Assembly (NCBI GenBank): GCA_029262335.1
Contig: JAJCZQ010000017.1
Span: 4,033-68,032 of the forward strand
DNA length: 64,000 nucleotides
DNA from: Deltaproteobacteria bacterium
GTDB lineage: Bacteria > Desulfobacterota_D > UBA1144 > Nemesobacterales > JAJCZQ01
Reading direction: 5' to 3'
Shown here: positions 10,040 to 51,581 of the stretch, in pieces
Layout of the letters: every line of letters starts with the position of its first letter
Position numbering within the stretch: the first letter of the stretch is position 1
Made by a program: the position numbers and the translations under genes
The notes under the pieces: generated by a model
Told to the model about the DNA's origin: nothing
Databases searched by the model: none
The model's input: the letters and a program-made list of their open reading frames with translations, nothing else

Positions 10040-10130
10040 AAATATCCTCCTAAAAATCAATCCGGTAAAAATAATCTTATTTTTTATATTGTTCAATAGC
10101 ACACATTATATATAAGGTGAATATTGTACA

Positions 10131-10184: not shown

Positions 10185-11252
10185 TTAGAATTGCCCTATT
10201 TCTTCAGAAAAAATTAAAGCAGGGAAAAACATTGTATCCATTGAACCGCGTCCGTTACCGTTATTTAAACCAATATATCCGTAAAAACCTACAGTATTTT
10301 CTCCACGATTTTCAGGAGTAAGAACTACAACTCCTTCAGAAATTATATTACCGGGGCAAAGGAGTTCTCCTCCTTTACTGTTTGGTATAGCCTCATTAAT
10401 ACCGTATTCAAATCTTGCAACTGAAGCTGATGAACGTGCAAGGGTCTCACTACCTGCGAGTACAAGTATCTCTTCAATCAGGGGGTTGTTTTCATCAACG
10501 CAGGAAAATACAACGTCGCGGCATGAAAACAGGACTTCATTGTTATTAATTATATCCACATCGACTGCAACAAATGATTCAAGGACGTTGTCGAGAGTTG
10601 CTTCAAAAGTAAAAGTTTCATCACCTATGAAGTCATCATCATCATCGCCTATTGCAAACCTATCAGAACTTAATGCTATTCCGAAAACATCTGAAAGTAC
10701 AATTCCGGCCTCAGAGTTAAAATTAAAAGTATTAAAGAACTGTTCAATATTTATAGGTATTATTTGTCCGAAAAAACTCGGTGTGGAAGCAATATTGGTC
10801 CGGTATTCATAACCGGAACTATCTATCATCCTTATATTTCCAATTAGTGGTGTAGTTATGAATTCTGGGTCAATAACTAAAAATGGTATAGGTGCACTAA
10901 TAAACACTATTCCATATGCATCTTCAGGGAGTACTACACCAGAAGGGCTGCCGTCGTTGGTAAGAATGTCCCTTAGGTTGTAAACATGTGTGTCATTTGG
11001 TGTATAAAGGTCGAAAAAATTGTTTTCGTTACAAAGGTTTCCTACGTTATAGATCTGTATATGAAGGTTCTGGCTGGTTGAGTCTATATTAGTCAGCTGA
11101 ATATAAGACTCCCTGTCCCGCAGGTCAAAAGGAGCTGCCAATAGAAAGGACGAGTTGTCAGTCTCTGCCAGGCCAATTGGACCAAGCCCTGCAAAAGAGA
11201 TACCGGCAGGTGTGAAAAGTGTAATTAAAAGCAGTAAAGTTAAAATCCTCAT
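10185..11252 (-). CDS. Secreted protein, novel paralogous family, member 3
   Basis: Same conserved blocks. Poly-Asp variable loop (GDDDDDFIGDE). ATG with GGAGGA SD. Confidence 0.85.
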   Translation of the reverse strand: MRILTLLLLITLFTPAGISFAGLGPIGLAETDNSSFLLAAPFDLRDRESYIQLTNIDSTSQNLHIQIYNVGNLCNENNFFDLYTPNDTHVYNLRDILTNDGSPSGVVLPEDAYGIVFISAPIPFLVIDPEFITTPLIGNIRMIDSSGYEYRTNIASTPSFFGQIIPINIEQFFNTFNFNSEAGIVLSDVFGIALSSDRFAIGDDDDDFIGDETFTFEATLDNVLESFVAVDVDIINNNEVLFSCRDVVFSCVDENNPLIEEILVLAGSETLARSSASVARFEYGINEAIPNSKGGELLCPGNIISEGVVVLTPENRGENTVGFYGYIGLNNGNGRGSMDTMFFPALIFSEEIGQF

Positions 11253-30772: not shown

Positions 30773-33733
30773 ATGAACCTGATACAATTACCAATACGAA
30801 ATTTATTACTAACTTTATTTACGCTAATCTTCTTTTTAACACTATTTACAATTAACTCTAACTCACAAAGCTGTAATGAAATGAATATACCAATGTGTAC
30901 TGACACCCAGATTGAAAATGATTGTAGTGGGTGTAAAAGTGCAGATCAACAGTACTGCTGTACGGATACAATGGGTTGTAACACTGATTTGACTACAATC
31001 TGTAATCCTCCATGTAATGAAAGTAACATTTGTCAGATGCCTGAAGAATGCACAGGAACCAGCATCCCCGATTGTGCACAGGACTTAACTGATTGTAGTG
31101 TATGTGGTGAAAATGATTTTTGTTGCCCATCCTCAACTGGCGGCACTGCTGCCTGTGGTACAACATTCGATGGTTTATGTAATGGCAATACCTGTACTGA
31201 CCAAAATATATGTAAATATGTGCCGCTTCCCCCTGTACTTGAAAGAGAATTTACATTTATAAATAATTGTAGTGAAACAGTCTGGGTAGGAGCTCTAACC
31301 AACCAGTTTGAAGGCGGTTTCGAACTCACCGGATCCTGCACTATGGATTCTGACTGCATGAATGCCTGTCCTACAATTACAGGAATAAGCAACTGTTCTT
31401 CCTCCTGTTTAAACGGATCATGCACGGTTGAATTTACCGGTAATATTAATACAGCTACTGCAGACAGTATATCAGGAAGGTTCTGGCCAATGACCGGATG
31501 CAGTTTTAATGGTTCTCAGGAATGCGAGGGAACTGACAGGTGCTGTGATACGGGGAGCTGTACTATATCCGGCGGAGGTTTTGGACTTCAGTGCAACAGC
31601 TCCGGGGATTCACCTAACACTGTCGCAGAGTTTACACTTACTTCAGGGGCCAACAATGATTTTTATGATATTAGTTTAATAGACGGATATAACGTGCCGG
31701 TTGAGATGAAGCCTGCCGGAACTGCCGCAGACGCACCGACTGGTTTTGACACTTCTTACTGGTGTGCTAACCCGGGAGGTGTTGAATCAACAATAATTCC
31801 GGAGGTCTGTAACTGGGACACTACTTTCGGTACTGACTGTGCCGGTAACCCTGATTTCAGGACGGTAGGATCACTTCAGACCTGTACTGAGGATTCAGAC
31901 TGTGGTTCAGGAACGTGCAATGTGAGTTCCGGTGTATGCGAATGTAAGGATGATACTGACTGTAATCAAACAGGGAATATATGCGGGGTTCCTGACCCGG
32001 GCTTTACGGGTTTTAAAGCCTGCGGGACTCAGACAGGTTGTACAACGGCAAAAGATATATGCGGCTTGTATTTCGGACAGGGTGAAAAAGGTGATACCTG
32101 CGGACAGGATGAACTTTGCTCAAGTGGTACCTGCCTTGCGCCCAACACTCCGAAAACCTGCATGATGGACAGTGACTGCAATGCTGTTTGTATGAACGGT
32201 ACATGTGAAAATAATAGCAATATAAGCTGTACGCTAGATAGTGAATGCACAGCCAATTGTGTAGATGGGCAATGCTGGAAACCATGCACATTGACAAGTG
32301 ATTGTAATGGTGAGGAAGTATGTGCCGAGGGAGTTTGCCAGTGTATACCTAATGTCTGCAACTCTATGGGTATGTGTACTAATGACGGAGATTCCTGTAC
32401 AACAACTGCAGATTGTACACAGACCTGTGGTGGTTTTTGTACCGAGGGGCCTGCAGATTTTCTTGATTGCAACGAACTTGTAACGACTAATAAACAGGTT
32501 GCATGCTCTGTAGATACGGATTGTCCTGCATTAGTAGGCCTTCCTGCATGTACAACGAATTCCGACTGTCCGGAGAACACTACATGTGAAGATTTTGGTG
32601 CGATGCCGGCTCCGGGACAACCCGAAATTGCAAAAGTATGCAGGCTCACATGTGATACAAATACAGGTTTCTGTTCAGGTCCCACATGTACTGACAACAG
32701 TGACTGTACAGGGATGAGTAACGGTGTAAGCCTGAGCGGAACATTTATGCAGTGTGATACGAGCACCAGTCCAGGCAGCTGCGTTGCAACAAATACAAGC
32801 CTGTATGAAGGTGCCGGTTTAACAGGACAGTCCTGCTATATAAATTATTATGGGGGTTTTGCACCGTCATTATCCTGTAATGGATGCCCGACAGCTTGTG
32901 ATGATCCTCCATGTAATCCGGCACAGGCAGCTAATTCCAAATGGCCTTCACCTGCTACCAATGAGAGTTGTAAAAATACTAATTCGGACTGGGTAAGTGT
33001 TGCGGAACCATTAGTTGAAGGATTCAAGGAAGCATGCCCTTCAGCTTACAGCTTCCCGTTTGACGACCCAACAAGTACTTTCCAGTGTACAAATGATACG
33101 CAGACAAACAGCATGGGGTATGAAATTACTTTTTGTCCCGCGGGAACACCAATACCGCCACCGCCTCCACCTCCGGTAATTGATGATGATACAACGGAAC
33201 CTCCAATAAAAATTAACCCGGGTAGTAACGGGCCGTTTGTTTCGATCGAATTTGATCCCGAACTTGATGGGGGAGGCCAGATTTTTGTAGGCCTTCCGCC
33301 GGGAGTCCTTGCGGAGTTTGCACAGCTGAACCCCGTTGTAGGAGACTGTGAAATAGTAAGCCAGACTGCAAGGGTAACGGACCCAGATGTAATATGCAGG
33401 GTAGATGATTTTCCCGAAAACCTTGATATGCTCATAGAGTTCTGCAAAGAAGCAGATCAGCAGGGTGTTGTTCAGGCCGCTGTTGAGGTACTGAGTGACG
33501 GAATACCCGAAGAAGAATTCAGTAATTTCCTCGACATACTTCTTGATGAGCTGGATTTATGCGCTAGTAATGATGACGATGCAGGTGATGATGGAAGCGG
33601 TGACATTACAACTGGAGATGATACTGGTACCGGTTGTTCGCTGACTCCGGCAGGCAGTGAATCAAACGCCTTGCCTCTACTGCTGTTAATCCCGGCATTT
33701 ATAATTATCAGAAGATTAAGAAATAAAAAGTAG
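30773..33733 (+). CDS. Secreted cysteine-rich thaumatin (PR-5)-like domain protein with C-terminal sorting-signal-like tail
   Basis: Thaumatin blocks: FTFINNCSETVWVGA, GRFWPMTGCSF...CDTGSC...VAEFTL...DFYDISLIDGYNVPVEM, FKEACPSAYSFPFDDPTSTFQC...YEITFCP. Many CTxDSDC modules inserted within domain II. PPPPPPPP linker. C-terminal GCSLTPAG + hydrophobic stretch + RRLRNKK. Confidence 0.8.
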   Translation: MNLIQLPIRNLLLTLFTLIFFLTLFTINSNSQSCNEMNIPMCTDTQIENDCSGCKSADQQYCCTDTMGCNTDLTTICNPPCNESNICQMPEECTGTSIPDCAQDLTDCSVCGENDFCCPSSTGGTAACGTTFDGLCNGNTCTDQNICKYVPLPPVLEREFTFINNCSETVWVGALTNQFEGGFELTGSCTMDSDCMNACPTITGISNCSSSCLNGSCTVEFTGNINTATADSISGRFWPMTGCSFNGSQECEGTDRCCDTGSCTISGGGFGLQCNSSGDSPNTVAEFTLTSGANNDFYDISLIDGYNVPVEMKPAGTAADAPTGFDTSYWCANPGGVESTIIPEVCNWDTTFGTDCAGNPDFRTVGSLQTCTEDSDCGSGTCNVSSGVCECKDDTDCNQTGNICGVPDPGFTGFKACGTQTGCTTAKDICGLYFGQGEKGDTCGQDELCSSGTCLAPNTPKTCMMDSDCNAVCMNGTCENNSNISCTLDSECTANCVDGQCWKPCTLTSDCNGEEVCAEGVCQCIPNVCNSMGMCTNDGDSCTTTADCTQTCGGFCTEGPADFLDCNELVTTNKQVACSVDTDCPALVGLPACTTNSDCPENTTCEDFGAMPAPGQPEIAKVCRLTCDTNTGFCSGPTCTDNSDCTGMSNGVSLSGTFMQCDTSTSPGSCVATNTSLYEGAGLTGQSCYINYYGGFAPSLSCNGCPTACDDPPCNPAQAANSKWPSPATNESCKNTNSDWVSVAEPLVEGFKEACPSAYSFPFDDPTSTFQCTNDTQTNSMGYEITFCPAGTPIPPPPPPPVIDDDTTEPPIKINPGSNGPFVSIEFDPELDGGGQIFVGLPPGVLAEFAQLNPVVGDCEIVSQTARVTDPDVICRVDDFPENLDMLIEFCKEADQQGVVQAAVEVLSDGIPEEEFSNFLDILLDELDLCASNDDDAGDDGSGDITTGDDTGTGCSLTPAGSESNALPLLLLIPAFIIIRRLRNKK

Positions 33734-34354: not shown

Positions 34355-35458
34355 ATGGCCAGCATTATTAACGATTTTAAAATTGTTGTTTTTATCAGTT
34401 TTATATTAATCGCAATTACATTTTTTAACTGCGGGGGCGATAGTATAGATTCATCCACAAACAGCAGTTCACCGGAACTCAGCAGAATTGACGGACGTGT
34501 TACTGAGGTGCTGGCATTAAAAATAGATGAAAAACAGTCACATTTTGCTGAAATTAAAAATACATTGAGTTTTACCGTGACAGCTACCGCCCAGGGGTCC
34601 TTAGTGGATGGAATTTTAGTTATGGCTATTGGGAATGATTCAAACGGTGAAAAGCTTTTGGACCAGGATACAACAGCCTTTGATGGCAGTTTCAGCCTGT
34701 TTGTCCCGGCCGGGGAAGTTGCTCTGCAGTTTGAAGTTGATAACGAAGTATATGAAAAAGTATTGCAGGTCCCTGAGGAAACCACTGTTGAAATACTGGT
34801 CAGCATAGATAAAGAAGATAAAGTAAACCCGGTTGAAATATCCGGTCCGGATGAAGTTGGCGAAGAGGAAAATACGGAAGATACTATTGATGAAACGGAA
34901 GATAATAGTGAAGACATGAATAATGAAAATGATGTTCCTGAGCCGGAAGATACTAATGACATGCAGGATGAAGATGAGCAGACAGGTAATGATGACGATG
35001 ACAATCAGGGTGATTTTGATCCACCATCTTCGGGAGAAGGGAATATAACTTCGGCAGAATTAGTCTCTTCGGTAAACTCAAGACGGGCCCAGGGGGCAAA
35101 TTGCGGATCCGAAGGGTCATTCGGGCCACAGGGGCCGCTTGGAATAAGTAACTCTCTTGGTGAAGCGGCACTCAGGCATTCAGTAGATATGTCAGAAAAC
35201 AATTTTTTTGAACACCGGGGTTCTGACGGATCAAGCCCTATAGACAGAATGAGGGATGCGGGGTTTGCCGGAAACGGCTGGGGTGAGAATATCTCACGTG
35301 CAAGCTATGAAAGATCAGCCGAGGAAGTAGTAGCAGGCTGGATGACAAGTGACGGGCACTGTTCAAACATTATGACCCCGGGTTTTAATGTCCTGGGTTC
35401 TGCAAAAGCAGCTAACAGCAACTGGGAAAACTGGACACTTAATCTCGGTACTGAGTAA
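34355..35458 (+). CDS. CAP (SCP/PR-1-like, YkwD-type) domain lipoprotein with acidic linker
   Basis: Lipobox FFNCGG. Long D/E-rich linker. C-terminal CAP region (ELVSSVNSRRAQGANCGSEG...EHRGSDGSSPIDRMRDAGF...GENI...AGWMTSDGHCSNIM). Confidence 0.75.
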   Translation: MASIINDFKIVVFISFILIAITFFNCGGDSIDSSTNSSSPELSRIDGRVTEVLALKIDEKQSHFAEIKNTLSFTVTATAQGSLVDGILVMAIGNDSNGEKLLDQDTTAFDGSFSLFVPAGEVALQFEVDNEVYEKVLQVPEETTVEILVSIDKEDKVNPVEISGPDEVGEEENTEDTIDETEDNSEDMNNENDVPEPEDTNDMQDEDEQTGNDDDDNQGDFDPPSSGEGNITSAELVSSVNSRRAQGANCGSEGSFGPQGPLGISNSLGEAALRHSVDMSENNFFEHRGSDGSSPIDRMRDAGFAGNGWGENISRASYERSAEEVVAGWMTSDGHCSNIMTPGFNVLGSAKAANSNWENWTLNLGTE

Positions 35459-35566: not shown

Positions 35567-36556
35567 ATGAGAGTATCATCTTTTTTAATAGCAGTTTCAC
35601 TTTGTTTAAGTTTTACAGTAATTTCAATTCAGGAAAGTTCTTCCCAGGCACTACCTATTGCAGAGTCTGACGCTGCAGGGCCACAGTTGATTGGTTTTTT
35701 TGACCTTAGGGAGAGAGAATCTTTCATGCAGTTAACTAATACCGATAGTGCAGTACAAACAGTACATATTCAGCTTTTCAATGTTAATGACAACTGCAAC
35801 GAAAACAATTTCTTTGATGACTATACCGCTAACGATACACATATATATAATCTGAGAGACATTCAGACTAACGATGGAAACCCACCGGGAGTAGTACTCC
35901 CAGCTGATGCTTATGGAATATTTGTTGCAACTTATGTGAATAAACCAAATGTTATGCAGCCCCCTCTTGCATTAGTAGGAAACCTAAGAGTTATTGACAA
36001 CAGCGGCTACGAATACAGGACAAATCTGCTTAGCTCCCTTGCCTCTGAAATTCAATCAATTTTTGACCCGGTAACCTTCAACTTTAATTCTGAAGCCGGT
36101 GTAACACTTTCAGATGTGATAGGTATTCCACTTGACGATTTAGGTGAATTCGAACTACCTGCTGAAGTGTTTGCAGCTGACGTTACAAATATATGGTTAA
36201 GCTTTGATGTAAATATATTGGATAATATTGAAAATATATTTTCATGCAGGGATATAACATTTGCCTGTGTCAACGATCAGAATCCTTTATTAGAAGAATT
36301 GTTGGCTGCATCACAAACCAGTGTTGCGAGCTTTGAATACGGTATCAACAATGCAATACCTCACAGCAAGGGTGGAGAACTTCTTTGTCCTGGTAATACA
36401 ATATCCGAAGGGGTTGTTACACTAACAAATATTGACGTTGGATTTGAATCACAACCTACTTACTTTATTTTTGTAGGTCTTAACAATGGAAACGGCAGGG
36501 GTAGTCTGGATGTAATCTGGAACGATCAGATACCTGATATGATGGGTGGTGGTTAA
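35567..36556 (+). CDS. Secreted protein, novel paralogous family, member 4
   Basis: FFDLRERESFMQLTN, NDNCNENNFFD, NDTHIYNLRDIQTNDGNPPGVVLP, GYEYRTN, FSCRDITFACVNDQNPLLEE, FEYGINNAIPHSKGGELLCPGN, GLNNGNGRGS. Confidence 0.85.
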   Translation: MRVSSFLIAVSLCLSFTVISIQESSSQALPIAESDAAGPQLIGFFDLRERESFMQLTNTDSAVQTVHIQLFNVNDNCNENNFFDDYTANDTHIYNLRDIQTNDGNPPGVVLPADAYGIFVATYVNKPNVMQPPLALVGNLRVIDNSGYEYRTNLLSSLASEIQSIFDPVTFNFNSEAGVTLSDVIGIPLDDLGEFELPAEVFAADVTNIWLSFDVNILDNIENIFSCRDITFACVNDQNPLLEELLAASQTSVASFEYGINNAIPHSKGGELLCPGNTISEGVVTLTNIDVGFESQPTYFIFVGLNNGNGRGSLDVIWNDQIPDMMGGG

Positions 36557-41576: not shown

Positions 41577-44500
41577 ATGGAATTGAAAAAATCCCGTCTA
41601 ATACCACTAATATTTATTATTGTCCTTGTTGTTGCCTATCTTTTCATTGCAAAAATTTATGTGCCCGGACTTGTGAAGAGCGAAATTGCAAAATTCGGTG
41701 AAGAAAGGGGCGTGGCCCTTAGTGTCGGGGGAGCTTCTTTTGGTATATTCAGGGGACTTGTTTTAAGTGATACAAAGCTTGGGGATTCAATATCTGTAGA
41801 CACGATAGAACTGCGGCCATCTTTTCTCGAATTTCTTTCATCCGGGGAACTATTAATAGAAAGTATATTGGTTGACAGGCCCCTGGTCACGGTTGATGAC
41901 AATCTGCCTGAAACTATTATCAGGATTCAAAAAAGTGATGATAAAGAGCCGGGTAGAAATATTGAAATAAGAAATATTGATATAGATGACCTTGTCATTA
42001 AAGCGGGTGGGTCCGAGTACAGTCTTAGCGAGCTTGATATCGAGATGCCGGTGCAGGGGGATGAGGAAGACAGTCTGCAACTTCGCGGAAGACTTGAAAA
42101 TGATTCCTTAAGGCAGGAAGTAAGTTTTATTTCGGATATAGAATTCAGGGATAATAAAAATCTTAAAGTCGACGTTGCATTTACTGATTTAAAAAAGGGT
42201 GATATCACAGGTTTCCTTCGCTTTCCCCATGATCTTTCCATATATATATCAGCAATAGTAGATTACAGTGAGGGGTTAGATTCGAGGGGTAAACTCACAA
42301 TCATTAACAGCCTTGATAAAACCGAAGAAGGTGTAGTTGTCTTTGACCTCTCACATGAAGAAGAAAGTAAAAACCTTGCGATCAATTCTTTAAATGGCAA
42401 TATCGGAGAAGTCCTTAGCCTCGACATGAAAGGGCTGGCGGGAAACCTCCCGGATAACGGCATAGTAAAATTAAACGGAAATCTTAATGTGCCGGAGGCT
42501 TCAGGGCTTGAACCCTGGCTGCCGTTTTTAGACAGTATCAAAATTTCAGGGTCTCTAAACACAGAAAATATATATGTAAAAAAAGAGGGAGATATTACAA
42601 CTGTAATTGCCGGGATAGAATCCGATAATTTTTTACTGGATTTTGGTGAAAACAATAAAATAGCGGCCCGGAACCTAAGCACTAAAGACGGCCTGGAATT
42701 TATCTATACAAATGAGAATGATAAAACCCGTTACGGACTAAAACTCCGGGAAACGGAATACAGTGATTTTATTTATACCGATTACGAATCCTCCGCCGGA
42801 ACTATTAAAAGCCTGGATTTCAATTTCAAAGAGGGTATTTGGGACGTAAAACTCACATCCGGCGGCCCCGGTGTTCTTAACGAATCCCTTGGGGTAATGC
42901 TTAGTGACTACCTGCTTAACCTTGTAATATCGAGTAATGAAGAACTTGAGATCTCCGGAGATATTAAAGGTGTAGACGGAAGTTACGGTGTTTTTAGTCT
43001 CTTAACATTTTTTACAAATTTTAAATATTTAAACAACAAGATTGAGTTTAACAGTGCCAGTGCGGGAATTGAAACATACGGGGATTTTTTTGTGGACTCG
43101 GGGTCACTTTCATTTCCTCCAGTGAGCGGTGGGGAATACCTTCTTGAAATTAAAGATACAAAATTTATATATACAGACCCTGGTATAAATGCCGAAAATA
43201 TTAAGGGGCTTTTTACGATAAAAGCTGCCGGCGAAGGAAGTACAGCTATAGAAGGAAGGATAGTTGCCGAAAATGCCAACGTTTACACCAGTGTTATAAA
43301 GAACCTGAATTTTGATTATTACTCTCTTGGGGACGACTACAAGATAAGCAGTATTACAGGGGGATTTCTGGGCGGCAACCTCGGGGGTAGTCTTGGATTT
43401 AAAACACTTGAGGAGAGTATCTCATTTGAAACTGCCATAAAACTTTCAGGAGTAAAGAACGGCAGCCTCAATGCTGAAGGTGTTAATTTTGATTCAAAAG
43501 GCCATTTTTCTTCCGGGCATTTTAAAGATACAAAGGGAGTCCTTAAGTTTAATGACCTCTTTCTTGGCCAGGGATATACGGAAGTTGACTTTGACGGTGA
43601 GCTGGATTTTACCGTTGACCCTGAAACCATATCGATAGTTAAGGGGTTTATATCTAATGACGAAGGAAAAAGGTTTGAATTTACGGGAGGCCTTAACAAC
43701 TACGCGGAAGAAAAGAGGGATTTTAAACTATTAGCGCCTGAGATCCCGCTGGACTTTCTTATAGATGTTTTTTCCAGCTACCTTCCAGACAGCACTTTTG
43801 TACTTGATGTCGAAGGGGTAGTGTCGGTAGATTTTGATGCATTAAATATTTTAAGCGACGATGAAATATGGAACGGATTAATAAAGATAAAAGATTCAAC
43901 AGTTTCGGCGTTTATCAACAATGCAGATGTTCTTTTGGAAGATGTCGAAGGTTCAATAACAATAAGGGAGATAGACGGAGTTAAAAACAGGCTCGTGGCA
44001 CTGCTGGGTAAAGACCTTACAATTGACAGGTCGGTTTATAAGAAATACCTGGCTGAAGTTAAACAGGAAGCAGACACGGAAACCAGGGACTATCTTAAAA
44101 TCGGCAAACTGCAGTATGGATTTTTTGAGATGAACAACATTGAAGCAAAATTTGAAATGGATAACGACGAATTAAACCTCATCTATCTGAGGTCAGATGT
44201 TTATAACGGCAACATATTTGCGAGCGGGATATTTAATTACGGTGATTCAAAGGAGAACTACAATATAAACCTTTTGTTTTCCAGGCTCAGTCTTAAAAGC
44301 ATATCCGACAGCCTTCCCTCAATGGAGGGCTATATTACGGGCGTTATAGACGGACTGATCTGGTTTTCGGTCGGAAATGGTTATACAACTATTAACGGGC
44401 CTTTTTCATTCTGGGCCAGGGACGGCAAAGGTGAGAAGAGGACAATAGGCCGGGCACTCCTGGAAAAAATCGGAGCAAAGGGCAGATTTTTTACAGGCTC

Positions 44501-44720
44501 TTCAAGGCGGTACGATAAAGGTGAGATTGCGGGATATATAAAAGACGGATTTATAACATTTAAAAAACTTATTATTTCGAATAGAATACTTGGTTATACT
44601 GACTTAAAAATCAAGGTGGACGACAGACAAAACTCGATTACCGTAAAACACCTGTTTTCGGTAATAAGAGAGCTTGCAAGAAGGGCAAGCAGGGGAGATG
44701 TAGAGATTGATTTTCAGTAG
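41577..44720 (+). CDS. YdbH-like AsmA-family giant protein
   Basis: 1047 aa. N-terminal TM anchor, extended beta-rich body. Followed by a YnbE/YdbL-like gene. Confidence 0.7.
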   Translation: MELKKSRLIPLIFIIVLVVAYLFIAKIYVPGLVKSEIAKFGEERGVALSVGGASFGIFRGLVLSDTKLGDSISVDTIELRPSFLEFLSSGELLIESILVDRPLVTVDDNLPETIIRIQKSDDKEPGRNIEIRNIDIDDLVIKAGGSEYSLSELDIEMPVQGDEEDSLQLRGRLENDSLRQEVSFISDIEFRDNKNLKVDVAFTDLKKGDITGFLRFPHDLSIYISAIVDYSEGLDSRGKLTIINSLDKTEEGVVVFDLSHEEESKNLAINSLNGNIGEVLSLDMKGLAGNLPDNGIVKLNGNLNVPEASGLEPWLPFLDSIKISGSLNTENIYVKKEGDITTVIAGIESDNFLLDFGENNKIAARNLSTKDGLEFIYTNENDKTRYGLKLRETEYSDFIYTDYESSAGTIKSLDFNFKEGIWDVKLTSGGPGVLNESLGVMLSDYLLNLVISSNEELEISGDIKGVDGSYGVFSLLTFFTNFKYLNNKIEFNSASAGIETYGDFFVDSGSLSFPPVSGGEYLLEIKDTKFIYTDPGINAENIKGLFTIKAAGEGSTAIEGRIVAENANVYTSVIKNLNFDYYSLGDDYKISSITGGFLGGNLGGSLGFKTLEESISFETAIKLSGVKNGSLNAEGVNFDSKGHFSSGHFKDTKGVLKFNDLFLGQGYTEVDFDGELDFTVDPETISIVKGFISNDEGKRFEFTGGLNNYAEEKRDFKLLAPEIPLDFLIDVFSSYLPDSTFVLDVEGVVSVDFDALNILSDDEIWNGLIKIKDSTVSAFINNADVLLEDVEGSITIREIDGVKNRLVALLGKDLTIDRSVYKKYLAEVKQEADTETRDYLKIGKLQYGFFEMNNIEAKFEMDNDELNLIYLRSDVYNGNIFASGIFNYGDSKENYNINLLFSRLSLKSISDSLPSMEGYITGVIDGLIWFSVGNGYTTINGPFSFWARDGKGEKRTIGRALLEKIGAKGRFFTGSSRRYDKGEIAGYIKDGFITFKKLIISNRILGYTDLKIKVDDRQNSITVKHLFSVIRELARRASRGDVEIDFQ

Positions 44721-44738
44721 AGATAATTTAAGGAGCAA

Positions 44739-45446
44739 ATGATGAGAAATATTACAAATAAACTTAGCTGTTTTTTCTTTTTAATTTTTTCAGTGACCCT
44801 GATTTCATGTGCAACAATTACTGTAAATGTTTATTTCCCTGCAGAAGAGGTAAAGCAGGCTTATACAAATCTTGAAGAAGAGTTTTTACTTGAAGAAATT
44901 CCCGAAAATGAAGATACAACTTCCCCACAGGCACCGCCTCCCCCGGGATCAAGCCTGAGAGAATTTTACGAAGAAGAGCCAACCATTACAGTTACCAAAG
45001 TAGTGCCGCTTACCGGTGAGTTTAACTTTGACCTTATTAATAAAGCTTTTGCCCAGGAAAATATTGCAAGAACAATCGAAGCCGAACTCAAGAAGATGCC
45101 AAATGTTGTTAAAGCATTCCAGGCAAGGTCTGCAAGAAGAGGAAAAGTAAACGCACTACTAAGTTCAAACAAAGTAGGCGAAGGAAATAACGGGATGCTT
45201 GTTGCAAGGGGCGACCTTACTGCAGCTGATAAATCTGTAATGAACGCCGAGAATAAAGACAGGAAAGTTATTATCAAAGGAATGACAGTAGCCATCCTTA
45301 AACTCAACAACCTTGGTGATACTGCCGCTAACGAAAAGAAGGTCTACCCGGAAGCTGCCGAGCAGTTTGCAGCTACCAGGAGAGACGCCTCCAAGTCCGG
45401 CTGGTCAGTACAATTGCCAAACGGGAAATGGGCACGGAAGCGTTAG
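44739..45446 (+). CDS. Fused YnbE-like lipoprotein / YdbL-like (DUF1318) periplasmic protein
   Basis: Lipobox LISC followed by ITVNVYFP, like the YnbE CxxxITINMNV. C-terminal SGWSVQLPNGKWARKR, like the YdbL terminal motif. Confidence 0.5.
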   Translation: MMRNITNKLSCFFFLIFSVTLISCATITVNVYFPAEEVKQAYTNLEEEFLLEEIPENEDTTSPQAPPPPGSSLREFYEEEPTITVTKVVPLTGEFNFDLINKAFAQENIARTIEAELKKMPNVVKAFQARSARRGKVNALLSSNKVGEGNNGMLVARGDLTAADKSVMNAENKDRKVIIKGMTVAILKLNNLGDTAANEKKVYPEAAEQFAATRRDASKSGWSVQLPNGKWARKR

Positions 45447-45969: not shown

Positions 45970-47424
45970 ATGCCATCATCCAAACATTACCTTACAAAAT
46001 CCAAATTCCTTTCTGGCCTTCAGTGCAGAAAAAAGCTGTGGCTGGGTGTAAACCACCCGGAACTTGCAACTCCCCCTTCTCTGAAACAGCAGTTTATATT
46101 TGACTCGGGCTATGAGTTCGAAGATATAGTAATGAAGAGATACCCGGAAGGGGTGCTTGTAGAGTTCGAGAAACTGGACCGTATGGTTTCCATTACAAAT
46201 GACCTTGTAAATGACAACGCCCCAGTAATTTTCCAGGGGGCTTTTTACCACAAAGGCGTATATGTGATAAGTGATATAATCCGCAAAAATCAGGACGGCA
46301 CCTGGGAACTAAAAGAGATGAAGGCTTCTACGGGGGTAAAAGATGTACATTTCCCTGATCTTGCTATTCAGAAGTATATACTTGAGAACAATGGACTTTA
46401 TGTAAGTGATACCTATGTCATACATATTGATACAAGCGGTAATCTGCCTGACCTGAATTCAATGGTAGGTGTTGAGAAAACTACTGCCAATGTTGCTGAA
46501 TTTAATGTTGGTGAAGTTGTTAATAACTTCCAGGAGCTTATACGTGAAGAAACTGAGCCGGATGTAATGATCGGGGAACACTGCACCAAACCTTATGAAT
46601 GTGAGTTTAAGGATTACTGCTGGAAAGACATTGATGAATATTCAATGCTGAACTTTCCCCGTATGACATGGAAAAAGAAGCTTCAGTTTTATTCCTCTGG
46701 AATCAGGAGTATTAACGAGATACCCCCTGAAACCAAACTCACTGATAATCAGCAGGACTATGTAAACAGGCTTACCAATAAAACAGTTGATATCGATAGT
46801 GAAGCAATAAAGAAAAAACTATCAGAGCTTGAGTACCCGCTTTATTTTTTTGATTTTGAAACTACGCAAAGGGCTATACCCAGGTGGGAGGGAATTCACC
46901 CTTACCAGCAGATACCATTTCAGTGGAGCTGTCATATAATGCAGGAAAATGGTGAAATAACTCATGAAGAGTACCTGCATGATAATGAGTCAGACCCAAG
47001 GTTTGGACTTGCGGAGGCATTAGTAAATACAGTTGGCAATACAGGTTCTGTAATTGCATATAATGCAGTCTTTGAGAGTAATGAATTAAAAAAACTGGCA
47101 GATGCTTTTCCGCAATTTGCTGACAGGCTTCTTTCAATTGAAAGCAGGCTTTGGGACCAGCTGGATATTTTTAGGAAATACTACAAGGACTACAGGTTTG
47201 GCGGTTCAAATTCCATTAAAAGAGTACTTCCTGTAATTGACCCCGAACTCGACCATAAGAACCTGGAACTCTCTTCAGGGGATGAAGCAGATGTTTATTG
47301 GTACATGATGCTGGATGAAACCGACCCCGGGAAAAAGGCAGAGCTTAGAAATACCCTTCTGGAATACTGCAAACTTGATACCTGGGCTATGGTGGTAATC
47401 CATAAACATTTAGACTCGTTGTAA
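45970..47424 (+). CDS. DUF2779-like protein (putative PD-(D/E)XK-type nuclease fold)
   Basis: N-terminal YLTKSKFLSGLQCRKKLWL and FDFETT motifs resemble the DUF2779 family. Confidence 0.45.
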   Translation: MPSSKHYLTKSKFLSGLQCRKKLWLGVNHPELATPPSLKQQFIFDSGYEFEDIVMKRYPEGVLVEFEKLDRMVSITNDLVNDNAPVIFQGAFYHKGVYVISDIIRKNQDGTWELKEMKASTGVKDVHFPDLAIQKYILENNGLYVSDTYVIHIDTSGNLPDLNSMVGVEKTTANVAEFNVGEVVNNFQELIREETEPDVMIGEHCTKPYECEFKDYCWKDIDEYSMLNFPRMTWKKKLQFYSSGIRSINEIPPETKLTDNQQDYVNRLTNKTVDIDSEAIKKKLSELEYPLYFFDFETTQRAIPRWEGIHPYQQIPFQWSCHIMQENGEITHEEYLHDNESDPRFGLAEALVNTVGNTGSVIAYNAVFESNELKKLADAFPQFADRLLSIESRLWDQLDIFRKYYKDYRFGGSNSIKRVLPVIDPELDHKNLELSSGDEADVYWYMMLDETDPGKKAELRNTLLEYCKLDTWAMVVIHKHLDSL

Positions 47425-47688
47425 AATTTTGAGCAACAGTTCAATTATAATTAATTTCTTAAACAATTAAAATAATTGTTTACACCCCTTGTTTTATCAT
47501 TAACCTGTATTCCCTATTACTAATTATTTTTATCCGGAAAACGAGAGTGGAATTTTATCTGCTCTTGCTTAAATACGTTAGTGATTGAGGGATCCTGACA
47601 AATAACAACTAAAGAACGTTCATTAGAAATGGATTTTCCTTTTCTATTAAGAGGGATGGAGGAAATACCTGTATGGAGGTTTTACACG

Positions 47689-49419
47689 ATGAACCATTAT
47701 TTTAGTAAGTTTTTGGCAGCATTAATAATTTTTTCTGTATTATTTATTAGCAGCAGTACTGAGATATTTGCTCAGCAGAATGACTGGGCACGGGACGGTG
47801 AGGGCCGCCGGGATTCAAGTCGACGGATTAATCATGATGATGACCGTCAGAAGAAAGGCGATAAGAGGGATAAGCGCAACAGAGTCCGTAGGGATGAATT
47901 CCGCACTATCGATGGCAGCAGTAACAACCTCGACAACACCGAGATGGGTGCAATATTTACTCCTCTATTAAGGATCGTAAACCCCGCCTATTCAGATGGT
48001 ATTTCAGAACTTGCCGGGGAAGACAGGCTGAGTCCAAGGGAAATAAGTAATATTGTAAACAGTCAGGACGACGTGATATTTAACGAGCTAGGCACTACCG
48101 ATTACCTTTGGCAGTGGGGCCAGTTCCTGGACCATGACATTGACCTTACTGAAATTGCAATCCCCGAGGAAGAAGCAAATATAGAAGTACCTATTGGTGA
48201 TATTTTCTTTGACCCGGAAAGTACAGGTGAAATGATAATTCCTTTCACAAGGTCACTATACGACAGTTCTACAGGAACTGATACCGACAACCCCCGCCAG
48301 CAGTTAAACGAGATTACGGGCTGGATTGATGCTTCAAATGTTTACGGCTCAGAAGAAGAAAGGGCCACAGCATTAAGAACTAATGATGGCACCGGAAAAC
48401 TCAAAACTACTGATGGAAACCTGATGCCGTTTAATCTGGATGGTTTTCCAAATGCAGGTGGGGCTGGTACTGACCTGTTTCTTGCAGGTGATGTAAGGGC
48501 GAACGAACAGGTAGGTCTTACCGCTATGCATACACTTTTTGTAAGGGAACACAACCGCCAGGCGGAAAGAATCGCAGAAGACAATCCGGAACTTTCTGGT
48601 GACCAGATATATGAAAAAGCAAGGGAGATAGTTGCAGCTCAGATGCAGTACATTACCTACAATGAATTTCTACCTGCTCTTCTTGGAGATAGTGCATTAA
48701 AAAGATACAGGCGCTATGACCCTGATATTGATGCCAGTATTGCAAACAGCTTTTCTGCTGCTGCATACAGGTTTGGACACAGTGCTCTAAACCCTTTCCT
48801 TCTACGTGTTGATGCAGAAGGGGTAATGATTGATGCAGGGCATCTGCCGCTCAGGAATGCTTTCTTAGCCCCTAATGAGATTGTGGCAAATGGTATAGAG
48901 CCCATACTAAGGGGGCTCAGCCAGCAGCTTCACCAGAAAATAGATCCTTATGTAATTGATGACGTAAGAAATTTTTTATTCGGTCACCCGGGAAGCGGAG
49001 GGTTTGACCTTGCTTCACTCAATATCCAGAGGGGAAGGGACCACGGCCTGGCATCTTATAACGATACAAGAGAGGCACTTGGACTTGACCGCATAAATTC
49101 CTTTTCAGAAATAAGTTCAGATACCGAAATACAAATCCGGCTTGAAGAAGCATACGGTTCTGTTGAGGATATTGACCTCTGGGTAGGAGGGCTTTCCGAA
49201 GATGCTCTTCAGGGTTCACACCTCGGTGAGACATTCACTACAATAATTACAATCCAGTTTGAAGGTTTAAGAGACGGCGACAGATTCTGGTTTGAGCGCA
49301 GTCTCGGTGAAAGGCAGGCAGACAGGATTAAAAGAACAAGACTCTCTGATATCATTATAAGAAATACCGATATTGAAGAAGGCGAGATTCCAAGAGATGT
49401 ATTCAGAATAGCTAAATAG
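47689..49419 (+). CDS. Animal-type heme peroxidase (peroxidase-cyclooxygenase superfamily), secreted
   Basis: GGAGG SD with ATG 47689 and a signal peptide. WGQFLDHDIDLT (distal His), RDHGLASYN and FWFE motifs. Confidence 0.85.
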   Translation: MNHYFSKFLAALIIFSVLFISSSTEIFAQQNDWARDGEGRRDSSRRINHDDDRQKKGDKRDKRNRVRRDEFRTIDGSSNNLDNTEMGAIFTPLLRIVNPAYSDGISELAGEDRLSPREISNIVNSQDDVIFNELGTTDYLWQWGQFLDHDIDLTEIAIPEEEANIEVPIGDIFFDPESTGEMIIPFTRSLYDSSTGTDTDNPRQQLNEITGWIDASNVYGSEEERATALRTNDGTGKLKTTDGNLMPFNLDGFPNAGGAGTDLFLAGDVRANEQVGLTAMHTLFVREHNRQAERIAEDNPELSGDQIYEKAREIVAAQMQYITYNEFLPALLGDSALKRYRRYDPDIDASIANSFSAAAYRFGHSALNPFLLRVDAEGVMIDAGHLPLRNAFLAPNEIVANGIEPILRGLSQQLHQKIDPYVIDDVRNFLFGHPGSGGFDLASLNIQRGRDHGLASYNDTREALGLDRINSFSEISSDTEIQIRLEEAYGSVEDIDLWVGGLSEDALQGSHLGETFTTIITIQFEGLRDGDRFWFERSLGERQADRIKRTRLSDIIIRNTDIEEGEIPRDVFRIAK

Positions 49420-49434
49420 AATTTAAACTAATTA

Positions 49435-49466
49435 CCCCCTCCCCTCATTTGGAGGGGGGTTATTTT
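49435..49466 (+). terminator. Rho-independent terminator
   Basis: CCCCCTCC-cctcattt-GGAGGGGG followed by TTATTTT. Confidence 0.8.
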
Positions 49467-49637
49467 AACATCCTTTTAATAAAAGACCTGACCCCAGCAT
49501 AGGTATATAATGTTTTCCTGCTCTTAAACTAATAAATCTCAGTAATTATCTGTATTTAATGCTATAGTTAAAAGAAATTATTCAAATAACTTCAATAATA
49601 TTGTATAATTTGATTTAATTCCTTAAAGGAGAAATAA

Positions 49638-50645
49638 ATGAAAAATATAAAAATAATTTCGGTGTTTTTACTTCTTTTGGCTATTACATTTTTTCCGGCC
49701 CAGTCAAAGGCTGGTACTGCTACCCCGTTTAATGCATCCGGGACTGATAGCTCTGCTTTTGACAGTTTAATCTATTTTTTTGACCTGCGAGACAGAGAAA
49801 CATTTATCCAGCTTACATATTTTGAAGAAGTCATTCAGGGGATTTCTGCAAATATACACATTCAGATATTTGATGTTTCAAACAACTGTAACGAAAATAA
49901 TTTCTTTGATGTCTATACACCCAACGATACGCATGTCTACAATATGAGGGATATCCAGACTAACGACGGTAGCCCTTCAGGAGTAGTGCTTCCGGAAGGG
50001 GCTTACGGGATTGTTACAATTATATTTGAACCGGTTATTAATGCTCAGGTCGGTATTGGTATGATCGGAAACATGAGGGTGCTTGATAATAATGGCTACG
50101 AATACAGAACAAATGCTCAGTATTTTTCCAGGGCGGGCGGACCGGGTAGTGGCTCATCACCCGAGGATTTTTATTCCTTTAACTTTAACCAGGAAGCCGG
50201 TGTAACCTTATCTGATGTAATCGGTATTACATTGTCTTCTACTGATACCGAAAATAGCTTTGAATATCTTGCAGATCCTTTAACAGCATTTAATACTTTC
50301 GATATTGATATAATTGACAACAATGAAGTTCCTTTTTCCTGTAGAGACATAATTTTTGCATGTGTCAACCAGGATAGTGTTCTACTCGAACCACTTCTGG
50401 AATTTGCCGGAACTGCAAGTGTGGCGGATTTTGAATATGGAATTAACAATGTAATCCCTCACAGTAAAGGTGGAGAACTTCTCTGTCCTGGCAATGTGAC
50501 AGGTGAAGGTTTTGTTATCTTAAGGCCTGAACTACAGCCAACTACGGAAAGCTTTCGTAGTTTTTATGGTTTTGTTGGATTAAATAACGGCAATGGCAGA
50601 GGCAGCCTTGATTCCTTTTGGCAGTTTTTTGTTCAGCCTACATAA
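49638..50645 (+). CDS. Secreted protein, novel paralogous family, member 5
   Basis: FFDLRDRETFIQLT, NNCNENNFFD, NDTHVYNMRDIQTNDGSPSGVVLP, GYEYRTN, FSCRDIIFACVNQD, FEYGINNVIPHSKGGELLCPGN, GLNNGNGRGS. AAAGGAG SD. Confidence 0.85.
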   Translation: MKNIKIISVFLLLLAITFFPAQSKAGTATPFNASGTDSSAFDSLIYFFDLRDRETFIQLTYFEEVIQGISANIHIQIFDVSNNCNENNFFDVYTPNDTHVYNMRDIQTNDGSPSGVVLPEGAYGIVTIIFEPVINAQVGIGMIGNMRVLDNNGYEYRTNAQYFSRAGGPGSGSSPEDFYSFNFNQEAGVTLSDVIGITLSSTDTENSFEYLADPLTAFNTFDIDIIDNNEVPFSCRDIIFACVNQDSVLLEPLLEFAGTASVADFEYGINNVIPHSKGGELLCPGNVTGEGFVILRPELQPTTESFRSFYGFVGLNNGNGRGSLDSFWQFFVQPT

Positions 50646-50950: not shown

Positions 50951-51265
50951 ATGTTTATAATAAAAGAATATCTTGATAATAAAGGTAATAGCCCTTTTCA
51001 GTCATGGTTTAATAAATTAAGTGTCCATGCTGCATCAAAAGTAACTATTGCATTAACCAGGTTGGAAAATGGTAATTTGTCCAATGTTAAATCACTAAAA
51101 GGCGGAGTTTTTGAAATAAAGATTAATTATGGCCCTGGTTTTAGAATTTATTATGGTCTTGAGGGAAGAAAAATAATTATAATGCTTTGTGGCGGGACTA
51201 AAAAAAATCAGCAAAAAGATATAAATAAAGCTAAAGATTTATGGAAGATATATAAAGGATTATAA
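50951..51265 (+). CDS. Addiction-module killer protein (HigB/RelE-like, COG3657 type)
   Basis: FQSWFNKL, GNLSNVKSLKGGVFEIKINYGPGFRIYYGLEG..IIMLCGGTKKNQQKDI. Immediately followed by the cognate antidote gene. Confidence 0.8.
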   Translation: MFIIKEYLDNKGNSPFQSWFNKLSVHAASKVTIALTRLENGNLSNVKSLKGGVFEIKINYGPGFRIYYGLEGRKIIIMLCGGTKKNQQKDINKAKDLWKIYKGL

Positions 51266-51266
51266 A

Positions 51267-51581
51267 ATGCCAACCAGAGATTATAAAGAAACAATTCGTG
51301 AGAGAGTAATTAATGACCCGCCCTTCAAAAAGGTCTTATTAGAAGAAGCACTCGTATGCCTTTTGTCCGGTGATGTTGATACAGGTAAAGCAGTATTAAA
51401 AGATTATATAAAGGCAACAACCGGATTTGAAAATCTTTCAAAGAATATTGATAAAAAGCCAGAAAGTTTAATACGAATGCTGGGGCCAAAAGGTAATCCA
51501 ACAGCAAATAATCTTTTTAAAATTATTTCTCATATTCAAAAGAAGGAAAAGTTGAAATTTAAAGTTAGTGTTAGTGACTAA
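51267..51581 (+). CDS. Addiction-module antidote protein (HTH, COG3636 type)
   Basis: Start 1 nt after the toxin stop. HTH region LSKNIDKKPESLIRMLGPKGNPTANNLFKII. Confidence 0.75.
   Translation: MPTRDYKETIRERVINDPPFKKVLLEEALVCLLSGDVDTGKAVLKDYIKATTGFENLSKNIDKKPESLIRMLGPKGNPTANNLFKIISHIQKKEKLKFKVSVSD

Follow-up and report, generated by a model that had tools for sequence, protein, structure and literature searches.

A predicted Sec-exported, lactoperoxidase-like heme peroxidase in a deltaproteobacterial genome, and its secreted neighbour

Introduction

Among the marks of the peroxidase-cyclooxygenase superfamily are a catalytic arginine and an ester-forming glutamate in the pattern -X-R-X-X-E-X-, and a proximal histidine that is hydrogen-bonded to an asparagine (PMC4420034). 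The physiological role of its bacterial members is still largely unknown (PMC4420034). LspPOX, from Lyngbya sp. PCC 8106, is the reference bacterial member of Family 6, the "peroxidockerins" (PMC4420034, PMC5787809). It oxidises iodide, thiocyanate and bromide but not chloride, and it forms two ester bonds (PMC5787809, PMC10204396). DdPoxA is placed in the same family (PMC5787809). RbMPO, from Rhodopirellula baltica, oxidises halides and kills E. coli, and it reportedly accepts chloride (PMC10204396). CyanoPOX is the "bacterial lactoperoxidase" of Cyanobacterium sp. TDX16 (PDB 8S6C; PMC11776367). Its substrates are iodide, guaiacol, ABTS and 2,6-DMP (PMC11776367). Bacterial enzymes of this type are already known, both by their biochemistry (LspPOX, RbMPO, CyanoPOX) and by a crystal structure.

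Here we describe one more intact bacterial lactoperoxidase-like enzyme, from an uncultured bacterium of a poorly studied lineage. Its gene lies in the window, the 64-kb stretch of DNA that was analysed. We consider it very probable that the reading frame at 47689..49419 is monocistronic and encodes a Sec-exported, Ca-binding heme b peroxidase of the peroxidase-cyclooxygenase superfamily. The predicted enzyme would fall among the short bacterial proteins that resemble LspPOX, CyanoPOX and RbMPO.

Catalytic domain and active-site residues

The initial annotation proposed a secreted animal-type heme peroxidase, and a Pfam scan upholds this. The match to PF03098 spans the entire profile (positions 1-530 of 530), with E 1.1e-159 and a score of 532.8 bits, where the cut-off is 25. 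The signatures of the superfamily were located as well. They are WGQFLDHD at residues 143-150, RDHGLASYN at 450-458 and the proximal YRFGHS at 360-365. The gene, the domain and the functional residues are the following.

47689..49419, + strand: peroxidase coding sequence, 576 aa plus stop (open reading frame, PF03098)
47899..49404, + strand: An_peroxidase domain PF03098, residues 71-572 (full profile match)
48121..48138, + strand: distal motif Q145-F-L-D148-H149-D150, with the distal Gln, the ester-forming Asp, the distal His and a Ca ligand
48316..48336, + strand: Ca-binding loop T210-G-W212-I-D214-A-S216, corresponding to CyanoPOX Thr140/Trp142/Asp144/Ser146 (PMC11776367)
48496..48510, + strand: R270-A-N-E273-Q274, with the distal Arg, the ester-forming Glu and a Gln at the MPO Met243 position
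48778..48780, + strand: proximal heme ligand His364 (alignment with MPO and CyanoPOX)
49021..49032, + strand: N445-I-Q-R448, with the Asn predicted to hydrogen-bond to the proximal His and an Arg for propionate binding, corresponding to CyanoPOX Asn376/Arg379 (PMC11776367)

On the distal side, the motif aligns with WGQLLDHD of MPO and with Asp80/His81/Asp82 of CyanoPOX (PMC11776367). VRANEQ lies opposite TRSSEM of MPO, and R270 and E273 correspond to Arg199 and Glu202 of CyanoPOX (PMC11776367). On the proximal side, YRFGHS aligns with FRYGHT of MPO, and His364 is the equivalent of CyanoPOX His294. The alignment with CyanoPOX predicts a bond between His364 and Asn445. The predicted partners of the heme propionates are Asp152, Arg361 and Arg448. 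Likewise, D150, T210, W212, D214 and S216 align with all five ligand residues of the conserved Ca site of CyanoPOX, which has a second, non-conserved Ca site besides. In the mammalian enzymes, the equivalents of Asp148 and Glu273 make ester bonds to heme.

Every heme-pocket and conserved Ca-site residue named for CyanoPOX (PMC11776367) is present in the window protein and invariant in 29 homologs. This holds for the distal motif, for His364 and for N445-I-Q-R448. The distal His, the proximal His, the Asp and the Glu expected to bind heme are all kept.

One position separates the protein from MPO. Gln274 stands opposite MPO Met243, and Gln is invariant there in the 29 homologs. The sulfonium-forming Met of a myeloperoxidase-type chlorinating peroxidase is absent, and Gln274 is in its place. 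With the MPO-specific Met replaced by Gln, the enzyme is predicted to be LPO/LspPOX-like and not MPO-like. For the same reason, MPO-like chemistry is not predicted from the sequence.

Relatives and distribution

CyanoPOX is the best solved match in a PDB search, with 546.7 bits. DdPoxA (343), MPO (254), LPO (224) and DUOX1 (204) follow, and alpha-oxidase (80) and COX (47) are at the low end. The match to CyanoPOX 8S6C (E 5.9e-163) joins residues 71-564 to residues 3-499, with about 55% identity (269 of 491 aligned). CyanoPOX and DdPoxA outscore the Family 1, 7 and 4 proteins in this comparison, which is made of solved structures and has no Family 5 protein among them. To our knowledge, no Family 5 structure exists.

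Bacterial members had been called sporadic at first. This was overstated. At an E-value of 1e-20 or lower, the matches exceed 8000 protein clusters. Species-representative genomes of many phyla contain at least 595 stretches that match. The labels among the 595 stretches include Thermodesulfobacteriota, Acidobacteriota, Gamma- and Alphaproteobacteria, Myxococcota and Planctomycetota. Verrucomicrobiota, Nitrospinaceae, Nitrospirales, Sumerlaeota and cyanobacteria are also present. It means that the family is far commoner among environmental bacteria than "sporadic" implies. The NCBI name for the homologs is "peroxidase family protein".

A database search found a protein identical to the window peroxidase in both NCBI and Logan. 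We compared the locus with the relatives L082 (86%) and L083 (71%), and with others at 69% and 63%. SecA relatives carrying the Thermodesulfobacteriota label are 67-79% identical to the host SecA.

The mature peroxidase has a mass of about 61 kDa, its predicted pI is 4.6, and it contains no cysteine. The Pfam scan found no dockerin or other additional domain in the window protein. Dockerin repeats are confined to long members. NCBIfam gave no match to a C-terminal sorting domain or to a named peroxidase family in the window protein, in P0003 or in P0089. Some close homologs bear sorting-like C-terminal tails, which the window protein lacks.

Predicted export signal and N-terminal linker

Two segments precede the catalytic domain.

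47689..47772, + strand: Sec-type signal peptide, residues 1-28 (predicted from sequence features)
47773..47898, + strand: charged linker, probably disordered, residues 29-70 (charge content, pLDDT)

The predicted signal peptide, MNHYFSKFLAALIIFSVLFISSSTEIFA, is followed by QQ. Its n-region is basic, its core is hydrophobic, and the cleavage-type site has I-F-A before the Q. No lipobox Cys was found within residues 1-28. In most aligned homologs, a hydrophobic core ends in "AQ" at the aligned position (consensus of alignment A1). The signal peptide proposed earlier is borne out by these sequence features and by the homologs.

The same proposal included a highly charged N-terminal region of about 100 aa. 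The charge was confirmed, but the length was not. The region is a 42-aa linker (residues 29-70), and the whole part before the domain totals 70 aa with the signal peptide included. Residues 30-70 (41 aa) are 63% D/E/K/R, with a net charge of +4. Model pLDDT is below 50 across residues 21-79. The linker holds SSRRINH, the local version of the family motif [VI]-S-P-x-R-x-I. In many homologs, this motif is found 23-33 residues ahead of the domain start, as a conserved N-terminal peptide. An AlphaFold model of the peroxidase, made to see if the N-terminal motif docks on the domain, was uninformative (mean pLDDT 64.7).

Gene start, transcription unit and upstream region

The reading frame at 47689..49419 is real, and the strong Shine-Dalgarno sequence described for it is present. 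Three elements flank the gene.

47580..47599, + strand: conserved non-coding block AGTGATTGAGGGATCCTGAC, about 90 nt 5' of the start codon (cross-relative alignment)
47675..47679, + strand: Shine-Dalgarno GGAGG, 9 nt 5' of the ATG (read from the sequence)
49435..49465, + strand: predicted intrinsic terminator, CCCCCTCC-loop-GGAGGGGG, then TTATTTT

The mechanical open reading frame spans 47629..49419, and the ATG at 47689 is 20 codons inside it. We rejected the longer frame from 47629, as it carries stop codons in L082 and L083. The ATG at 47689 is the better start for this reason, and also because of the position of GGAGG and the conservation of GGAGGTTTTACAC-ATG. This block is invariant in the window, L082 and L083 (three-way alignment).

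The gap 5' of the gene is 264 bp long. At the other end, the terminator stem has 8 pairs, 7 of them G-C, and L082 has a hairpin of differing sequence at the equivalent position. Given the upstream gap and the terminator, the peroxidase appears to form its own transcription unit. The gene is predicted to be monocistronic, with its own terminator. Its GC3 is 0.39, like that of nearby genes, so we found no compositional signal of a recent horizontal transfer.

The block AGTGATTGAGGGATCCTGAC is identical in L082. In L083 it keeps 18 of 20 bases, although the remaining intergenic sequence and the upstream gene are different there. The block is unique in the window, and 0 matches are expected by chance. 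Its possible roles are a regulator site or a segment of a promoter.

Other regulatory elements were considered for the upstream region. A cis-regulatory RNA in the conserved 5' region was unsupported (fold z -1.08; covariation -0.77 kcal/mol over three sequences), and no Rfam match was found in that region. A sigma-54 promoter (TGG-N10-TGC, 47548-47563) was rejected, since the TGG is not conserved in L082. Likewise, a neighbour cluster taken for "sigma-54 activators" really contains OmpR-type response regulators, joined through receiver-domain similarity.

Among 85 other loci, about 33 have a two-component system or an ECF sigma factor next to the peroxidase gene. These regulator neighbours hint at an inducible extracytoplasmic role.

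The neighbouring secreted family

The gene downstream of the peroxidase was named paralog 5, and its putative promoter lies outside the peroxidase unit.

49581..49609, + strand: putative promoter TTCAAA-17-TATAAT of the paralog-5 gene, 10/12 consensus matches
49638..50645, + strand: gene of the secreted protein "paralog 5", which shares 51-53% identity with four other open reading frames of the window

The peroxidase gene is directly upstream of this gene, one of five paralogs in the window, and the position given by the initial annotation is confirmed. Paralog 5 has no Pfam or NCBIfam match. Its model is all-beta (pLDDT 81.7). The fold search gave no PDB match at E<=0.001, and only generic beta-sandwiches such as TM1070 (1NC7) and CBM-like folds appeared. 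The term "extracellular" is fair for the peroxidase and for paralog 5, since each has its own signal peptide.

The proximity of the two genes had been read as a link between the paralog family and oxidative chemistry. We found no support for this link. The 218 bp between the genes contain a G+C-rich terminator hairpin with a T-run, then the promoter-like site, whose L082 equivalent is TTTAAA-17-TATAAT. Besides the window, the adjacency is seen in L082 only. The family is not beside the peroxidase in the 71%, 69% and 63% relatives. In the 71% relative, the gene downstream of the peroxidase begins MSFQWNEEKREENLIKHGVDF and is outside the family. At greater distance, no family member lies within 10 kb of the peroxidase at any of 80 loci. 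A peroxidase occurs within 10 kb at just 1 of 71 loci of the family. In a close and fully syntenic relative, what lies between DUF2779 and the ortholog of paralog 5 is another member of the family and no peroxidase.

The size of the family also matters. The window has 5 copies, a single 296-kb contig has at least 11, and such a huge expansion makes a chance neighbour likely. By a count of gene positions, about 12% of the window genes outside the family adjoin one of its members. The adjacency of the peroxidase and paralog 5 looks like an accident of gene order, with no functional link. An apparent functional clue for the expanded secreted family is now removed.

Proposed function and alternatives

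The exported enzyme would take up heme and Ca2+, as its characterised relatives suggest. Reaction with H2O2 would then give compound I. An autocatalytic covalent linkage of the heme may follow, with two ester bonds expected by analogy with LspPOX. Judging from relatives of no more than about 55% identity, compound I would turn iodide, thiocyanate and probably bromide into hypohalous or hypothiocyanous acids. From the same relatives, chloride should be a poor substrate or none, and one-electron phenolic donors would also be oxidised. The lack of chlorination is not certain, because chloride use is reported for the bacterial homolog RbMPO (PMC10204396). By analogy, the likely role is to convert periplasmic or extracellular H2O2 into short-lived antimicrobial or halogenating oxidants, which would remove H2O2 too. 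No dedicated partner, H2O2 source or regulator is indicated within the window.

The enzyme could instead be purely a periplasmic scavenger of H2O2 (a peroxidase or pseudo-catalase) against oxidative stress, with a halide oxidation that has no biological role. Catalase and classical peroxidase side activities exist in relatives (PMC10204396). The regulators in the 33 or so loci mentioned above are an OmpR-type response regulator/histidine kinase pair or an ECF sigma factor, and one relative has its peroxidase between Metal_resist and ECF sigma genes. Both arrangements resemble envelope-stress regulons. Nevertheless, we find this exclusive role unlikely. The Gln-His-Arg distal pocket of halogenation type and both ester residues are invariant across the family, and such pocket and ester-bond features correlate with halide oxidation in the superfamily (PMC5787809). 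The characterised bacterial members are efficient on iodide, thiocyanate or bromide (PMC11776367, PMC10204396). Moreover, scavenging and the production of halide oxidants are compatible with each other. A fatty-acid oxygenase of the cyclooxygenase or alpha-dioxygenase type is extremely improbable. It belongs to the same superfamily, and weak matches to alpha-oxidase and COX were obtained. However, these reach 80 and 47 bits against 547 for CyanoPOX. In the window protein, the ester-forming Asp and Glu are present, and so is the proximal His-Asn pair, which is missing from Family 4 (PMC4420034).

Cooperation between the peroxidase and the neighbouring beta-sandwich family, for example by cross-linking or oxidising these proteins in an extracellular layer, is quite improbable. 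Peroxidasin and ovoperoxidase act on matrix proteins in such fashion. Both proteins of the window have signal peptides, and the 86% relative retains the adjacency. In addition, the related contig k141_316689 carries a distinct copy of the peroxidase (P0089, 66% identical), with four family members at a distance of 2.4-9 kb. However, these four genes are encoded on the other strand, and two unrelated genes intervene. The terminator and the separate promoter-like site divide the two window genes, and L082 keeps both. The three more distant relatives and the 80 distant loci have no neighbouring family member, 1 of the 71 family loci has a peroxidase, and the copy numbers given above favour a chance neighbour. 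No structural match of the family model hints at a redox or matrix function. In a more specific form, the secreted peroxidase of this lineage would cross-link the expanded, Cys-containing two-beta-sandwich family into an extracellular coat, or would activate it oxidatively. We hold this form to be highly improbable. If it were true, the association would recur in two arrangements, adjacent in the window and L082, and 2.4-9 kb away in k141_316689. We prefer to read the gene as a self-standing peroxidase of the bacterial lactoperoxidase type.

Comparison with characterised peroxidases

Mammalian lactoperoxidase, eosinophil peroxidase and myeloperoxidase (Family 1) share the fold family and the catalytic residues with the window protein. 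The scores against them are far lower than that of CyanoPOX, at 220-254 bits. The mammalian chains carry insertions, and the window protein is shorter. It also differs in having no disulfides, no mammalian-type propeptide processing sites and no sulfonium Met.

RbMPO is a bacterial PF03098 enzyme like the window protein, and the Pirellulaceae homologs are about 55% identical to the latter. However, RbMPO reportedly uses chloride, and in the window protein a Gln takes the place of MPO Met243. LspPOX and the window protein are both short bacterial enzymes with both ester-forming residues. We infer their relation through CyanoPOX and DdPoxA.

The closest solved system, CyanoPOX, differs from the window protein at both ends. 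It has a C-terminal PEP-CTERM sorting motif (PMC11776367), whereas the window protein stops right past the domain. The 42-aa charged linker with SSRRINH is without counterpart in the CyanoPOX construct, where chain residue 3 corresponds to query residue 71. Between these ends, the two proteins have in common the domain length, the absence of disulfides, the heme-pocket residues and the conserved Ca site. Likewise, CyanoPOX has Gln, not Met, after the ester-forming Glu.

Identification of the peroxidase and its gene

The sequence supports the identification of the 576-residue product of 47689..49419 (+) as a PF03098 heme peroxidase, an enzyme of a well-known kind already characterised structurally and biochemically. 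As the initial annotation had expected, PF03098 matches over its entire profile (residues 71-572, E 1.1e-159, 532.8 bits against a cut-off of 25). The Pfam scan gave no second domain, and the NCBIfam scan no model. The first rank in the PDB search was CyanoPOX, the 'bacterial lactoperoxidase' of Cyanobacterium sp. TDX16 (PMC11776367).

PDB search with the peroxidase
CyanoPOX (8S6C), rank 1: 546.7 bits, E 5.9e-163
Dictyostelium DdPoxA (6ERC): 343 bits
Myeloperoxidase (MPO): about 254 bits
Lactoperoxidase: about 224 bits
DUOX1: 204 bits
Fatty-acid alpha-oxidase: 80 bits
Cyclooxygenases: at most 47 bits

Features at the peroxidase gene
47580-47599: non-coding block AGTGATTGAGGGATCCTGAC, 20 nt, upstream of the gene
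47629..49419 (+): mechanical ORF
47689..49419 (+): accepted coding sequence, ATG 20 codons into the mechanical ORF, 576 aa
47812-47832: SSRRINH (residues 42-48), local form of [VI]-S-P-x-R-x-I

The start at 47689, also that of the initial annotation, was accepted for three reasons. GGAGG lies at 47675-47679, 9 nt before the ATG. The GGAGGTTTTACAC-ATG block is kept in L082 and L083, two relatives' loci with peroxidases 86% and 71% identical to this one. Likewise, in both relatives the frame of the upstream ATG (47629), which we rejected, is broken by stop codons. The GC3 of the gene is the same as in neighbouring genes. Antisense ORFs of 60-80 aa within it, such as 48342-48584 (-), are not genes; their tblastn matches, which turn up in nearly every peroxidase locus, are explained by their position opposite the most conserved part of the gene.

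The signal peptide that had been proposed is borne out by the sequence features. It is of the Sec type (MNHYFSKFLAALIIFSVLFISSSTEIFA|QQ), and a hydrophobic core with a terminal 'AQ' occupies the aligned position in most aligned homologs. The protein contains no cysteine and is therefore no lipoprotein. A charged linker of 42 residues (29-70) follows, with 63% D/E/K/R in residues 30-70; the previous estimate of about 100 residues was too long.

The AGTGATTGAGGGATCCTGAC block occurs once in the window. It is kept in L082 and L083, even though L083 otherwise differs in the spacer and the upstream gene. It has no Rfam match and no clear RNA structure. In many homologs (L002-L089) the linker peptide [VI]-S-P-x-R-x-I precedes the PF03098 domain by 23-33 residues. 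Its carriers include many proteobacterial, acidobacterial and Thermodesulfobacteriota proteins; the planctomycete, myxococcal and cyanobacterial homologs lack it. The peptide may act as a propeptide or in docking, and the region it lies in is predicted to be disordered.

Distribution and regulators in other lineages

NCBI and Logan already contain the identical protein, which lies on a 148-kb contig there. At E<=1e-20 it matches more than 8000 protein clusters; the best 120 of these are 55-100% identical, and several are named 'peroxidase family protein' by their sources. A scan of one genome per species gave at least 600 pattern matches, at least 595 of them confirmed. Labels among the matches listed comprise Thermodesulfobacteriota, Acidobacteriota, Gamma- and Alphaproteobacteria, Myxococcota, Planctomycetota, Verrucomicrobiota, Nitrospinaceae, Nitrospirales, Sumerlaeota and cyanobacteria. 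Describing bacterial members as sporadic thus understated their spread.

We clustered the neighbours of 85 homologous peroxidase loci. An OmpR-type response regulator and histidine kinase pair is beside the peroxidase in 18-21 of them. In 12 loci an ECF sigma factor is encoded no more than about 6 kb away, mostly immediately upstream. Together, the two arrangements account for 33 of the 85 loci (within L004-L080), and one relative has the peroxidase gene between Metal_resist and ECF sigma genes. This suggests a dedicated, inducible regulation in other lineages. Neither the pair nor an ECF sigma gene is near the peroxidase in the window.

Genomic neighbourhood and the paralog family

The window is ordinary chromosome, with SMC, SecA, MoxR, FolD, HPPK, TrpE/G and PGM. 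The closest named SecA relatives are 67-79% identical and labelled Thermodesulfobacteriota.

Paralogs and neighbouring genes in the window
7846-8847, 9041-10102 and 10185-11252 (-): paralog family members
30773-33733 (+): thaumatin-domain protein, 986 aa, by paralog 4
34355-35458 (+): CAP-domain (cysteine-rich secretory) protein, 367 aa, by paralog 4
35567-36556 (+): paralog 4
41577-45446 (+): AsmA-like protein, 1047 aa, then DUF1318 protein
45970-47424 (+): DUF2779 protein, directly upstream of the peroxidase
49638-50645 (+): paralog 5
50951-51581 (+): two 104-aa ORFs, one base between them

The thaumatin and CAP families are named in Pfam after eukaryotic proteins. L083 and the related locus L091 both keep the AsmA-like/DUF1318 pair upstream of the slot of the peroxidase or family member; we take the pair to resemble the E. 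coli ydbH-ynbE-ydbL arrangement. The DUF2779 protein has weak Cas4-like and RNase H-like matches; its gene is found in L082 and L091 and is missing at the same position in L083. The 104-aa ORFs are probably a toxin-antitoxin pair, since their counterparts in L091 include one that weakly matches Gp49 (HigB-like toxin).

The five paralogs belong to a large secreted family without annotation; about 998 homologs are detectable, and neither the Pfam nor the NCBIfam scan gave a model. They share 51-53% mutual identity. Four cysteines are invariant in the family, as are several motifs (FDLRDRE, CNENNFFD, GYEYRTN, FSCRD, GELLCPGN, GLNNGNGRGS). The AlphaFold model of paralog 5 is all-beta and confident (pLDDT 81.7); the fold search gave no PDB match at E<=0.001.

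Paralog 5 is indeed the next ORF downstream of the peroxidase, and this adjacency had been read as linking the family to oxidative chemistry. A functional link seems very improbable to us. The 218-bp spacer contains a terminator (8-pair stem with 7 G-C pairs, T-run) and a promoter-like TTCAAA-17-TATAAT. L082 has, at the same places, a hairpin of different sequence and TTTAAA-17-TATAAT. Among the relatives compared, the adjacency occurs only in L082. The gene downstream in L083 begins MSFQWNEEKREENLIKHGVDF... and is outside the family, the relatives at 69% and 63% peroxidase identity have different neighbours, and no family member lies within 10 kb of the peroxidase at any of 80 more distant loci. 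Conversely, the 71 family loci examined (L093-L163, 861 kb) hold one peroxidase.

The sole point in favour comes from contig k141_316689, where P0089, a peroxidase 66% identical, is 2.4-9 kb from four family members. These are on the other strand, and P0089 is about 130 kb from the syntenic slot. This contig, with a SecA 91% identical to that of the window, keeps the order ThiD-SLT-AsmA-like-DUF1318-DUF2779-[slot]-paralog-5 ortholog-...-Gp49-like pair, and another family member fills the slot instead of a peroxidase. The argument from proximity is weakened by the strong expansion of the family (5 copies in the 64-kb window, at least 11 on one 296-kb contig, tandem runs up to six). By our own count from window gene positions, roughly one in eight non-family genes adjoins a family member by position alone. 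We find no support for a connection between the peroxidase and the family next to it.

Catalytic residues and comparison with characterised peroxidases

The peroxidase and CyanoPOX share about 55% identity (269 of 491 aligned positions). In the 8S6C alignment, each residue named in PMC11776367 has a counterpart.

Residues of CyanoPOX and their counterparts in the peroxidase
Distal His: His81, H149
Ester-forming Asp: Asp80, D148
Ca ligand: Asp82, D150
Heme propionate partner: Asp84, D152
Distal Arg: Arg199, R270
Ester-forming Glu: Glu202, E273
Propionate partner: Arg291, R361
Proximal His: His294, H364
Proximal-side residue: Leu372, L441
Hydrogen-bond partner of proximal His: Asn376, N445
Propionate partner: Arg379, R448
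Ca ligands: Thr140, Trp142, Asp144, Ser146; T210, W212, D214, S216

These heme-pocket and Ca-site residues are invariant across an alignment of 29 homologs (57-86% identical to the query). The heme-binding residues of the initial annotation (distal and proximal His, Asp and Glu) are all retained. RANEQ faces RSSEM of human MPO, so that Gln274 takes the place of the MPO-specific sulfonium Met243 (PMC10204396 for what D94, E242 and M243 do in MPO).

The sequence combines an export signal, the full catalytic and Ca-binding set and both ester-forming residues, without the sulfonium Met. By analogy with characterised relatives, the exported enzyme would bind heme b and Ca2+. H2O2 would give compound I and could, by autocatalysis, join the heme to Asp and Glu. 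Compound I would oxidise I-, SCN- and probably Br-, plus phenolic donors. As a probable biological role, we favour the making of oxidants outside the cytoplasm, coupled there to the removal of H2O2.

Some close homologs, P0003 (L083:1871-3706) and P0089 (L089:10001-11599) among them, have a sorting-like C-terminal tail of G-C-[ST]-L, a hydrophobic helix and RRRK, in this order. No NCBIfam sorting-domain model matches the window peroxidase, P0003 or P0089. The C-terminus of CyanoPOX is a PEP-CTERM (PMC11776367), whereas the window peroxidase has no tail.

The heme-Asp/Glu linkage was observed in LspPOX; untreated CyanoPOX crystals did not show it, though both residues are present in that enzyme (PMC5787809, PMC11776367). 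CyanoPOX uses KI (kcat 885 s-1), guaiacol, ABTS and 2,6-DMP. LspPOX prefers I- > SCN- > Br- and does not take Cl-. RbMPO takes Cl- as well and kills E. coli (PMC11776367, PMC10204396). The Gln at the position of MPO Met243 is a feature that the window peroxidase shares with LPO, EPO and the LspPOX type.
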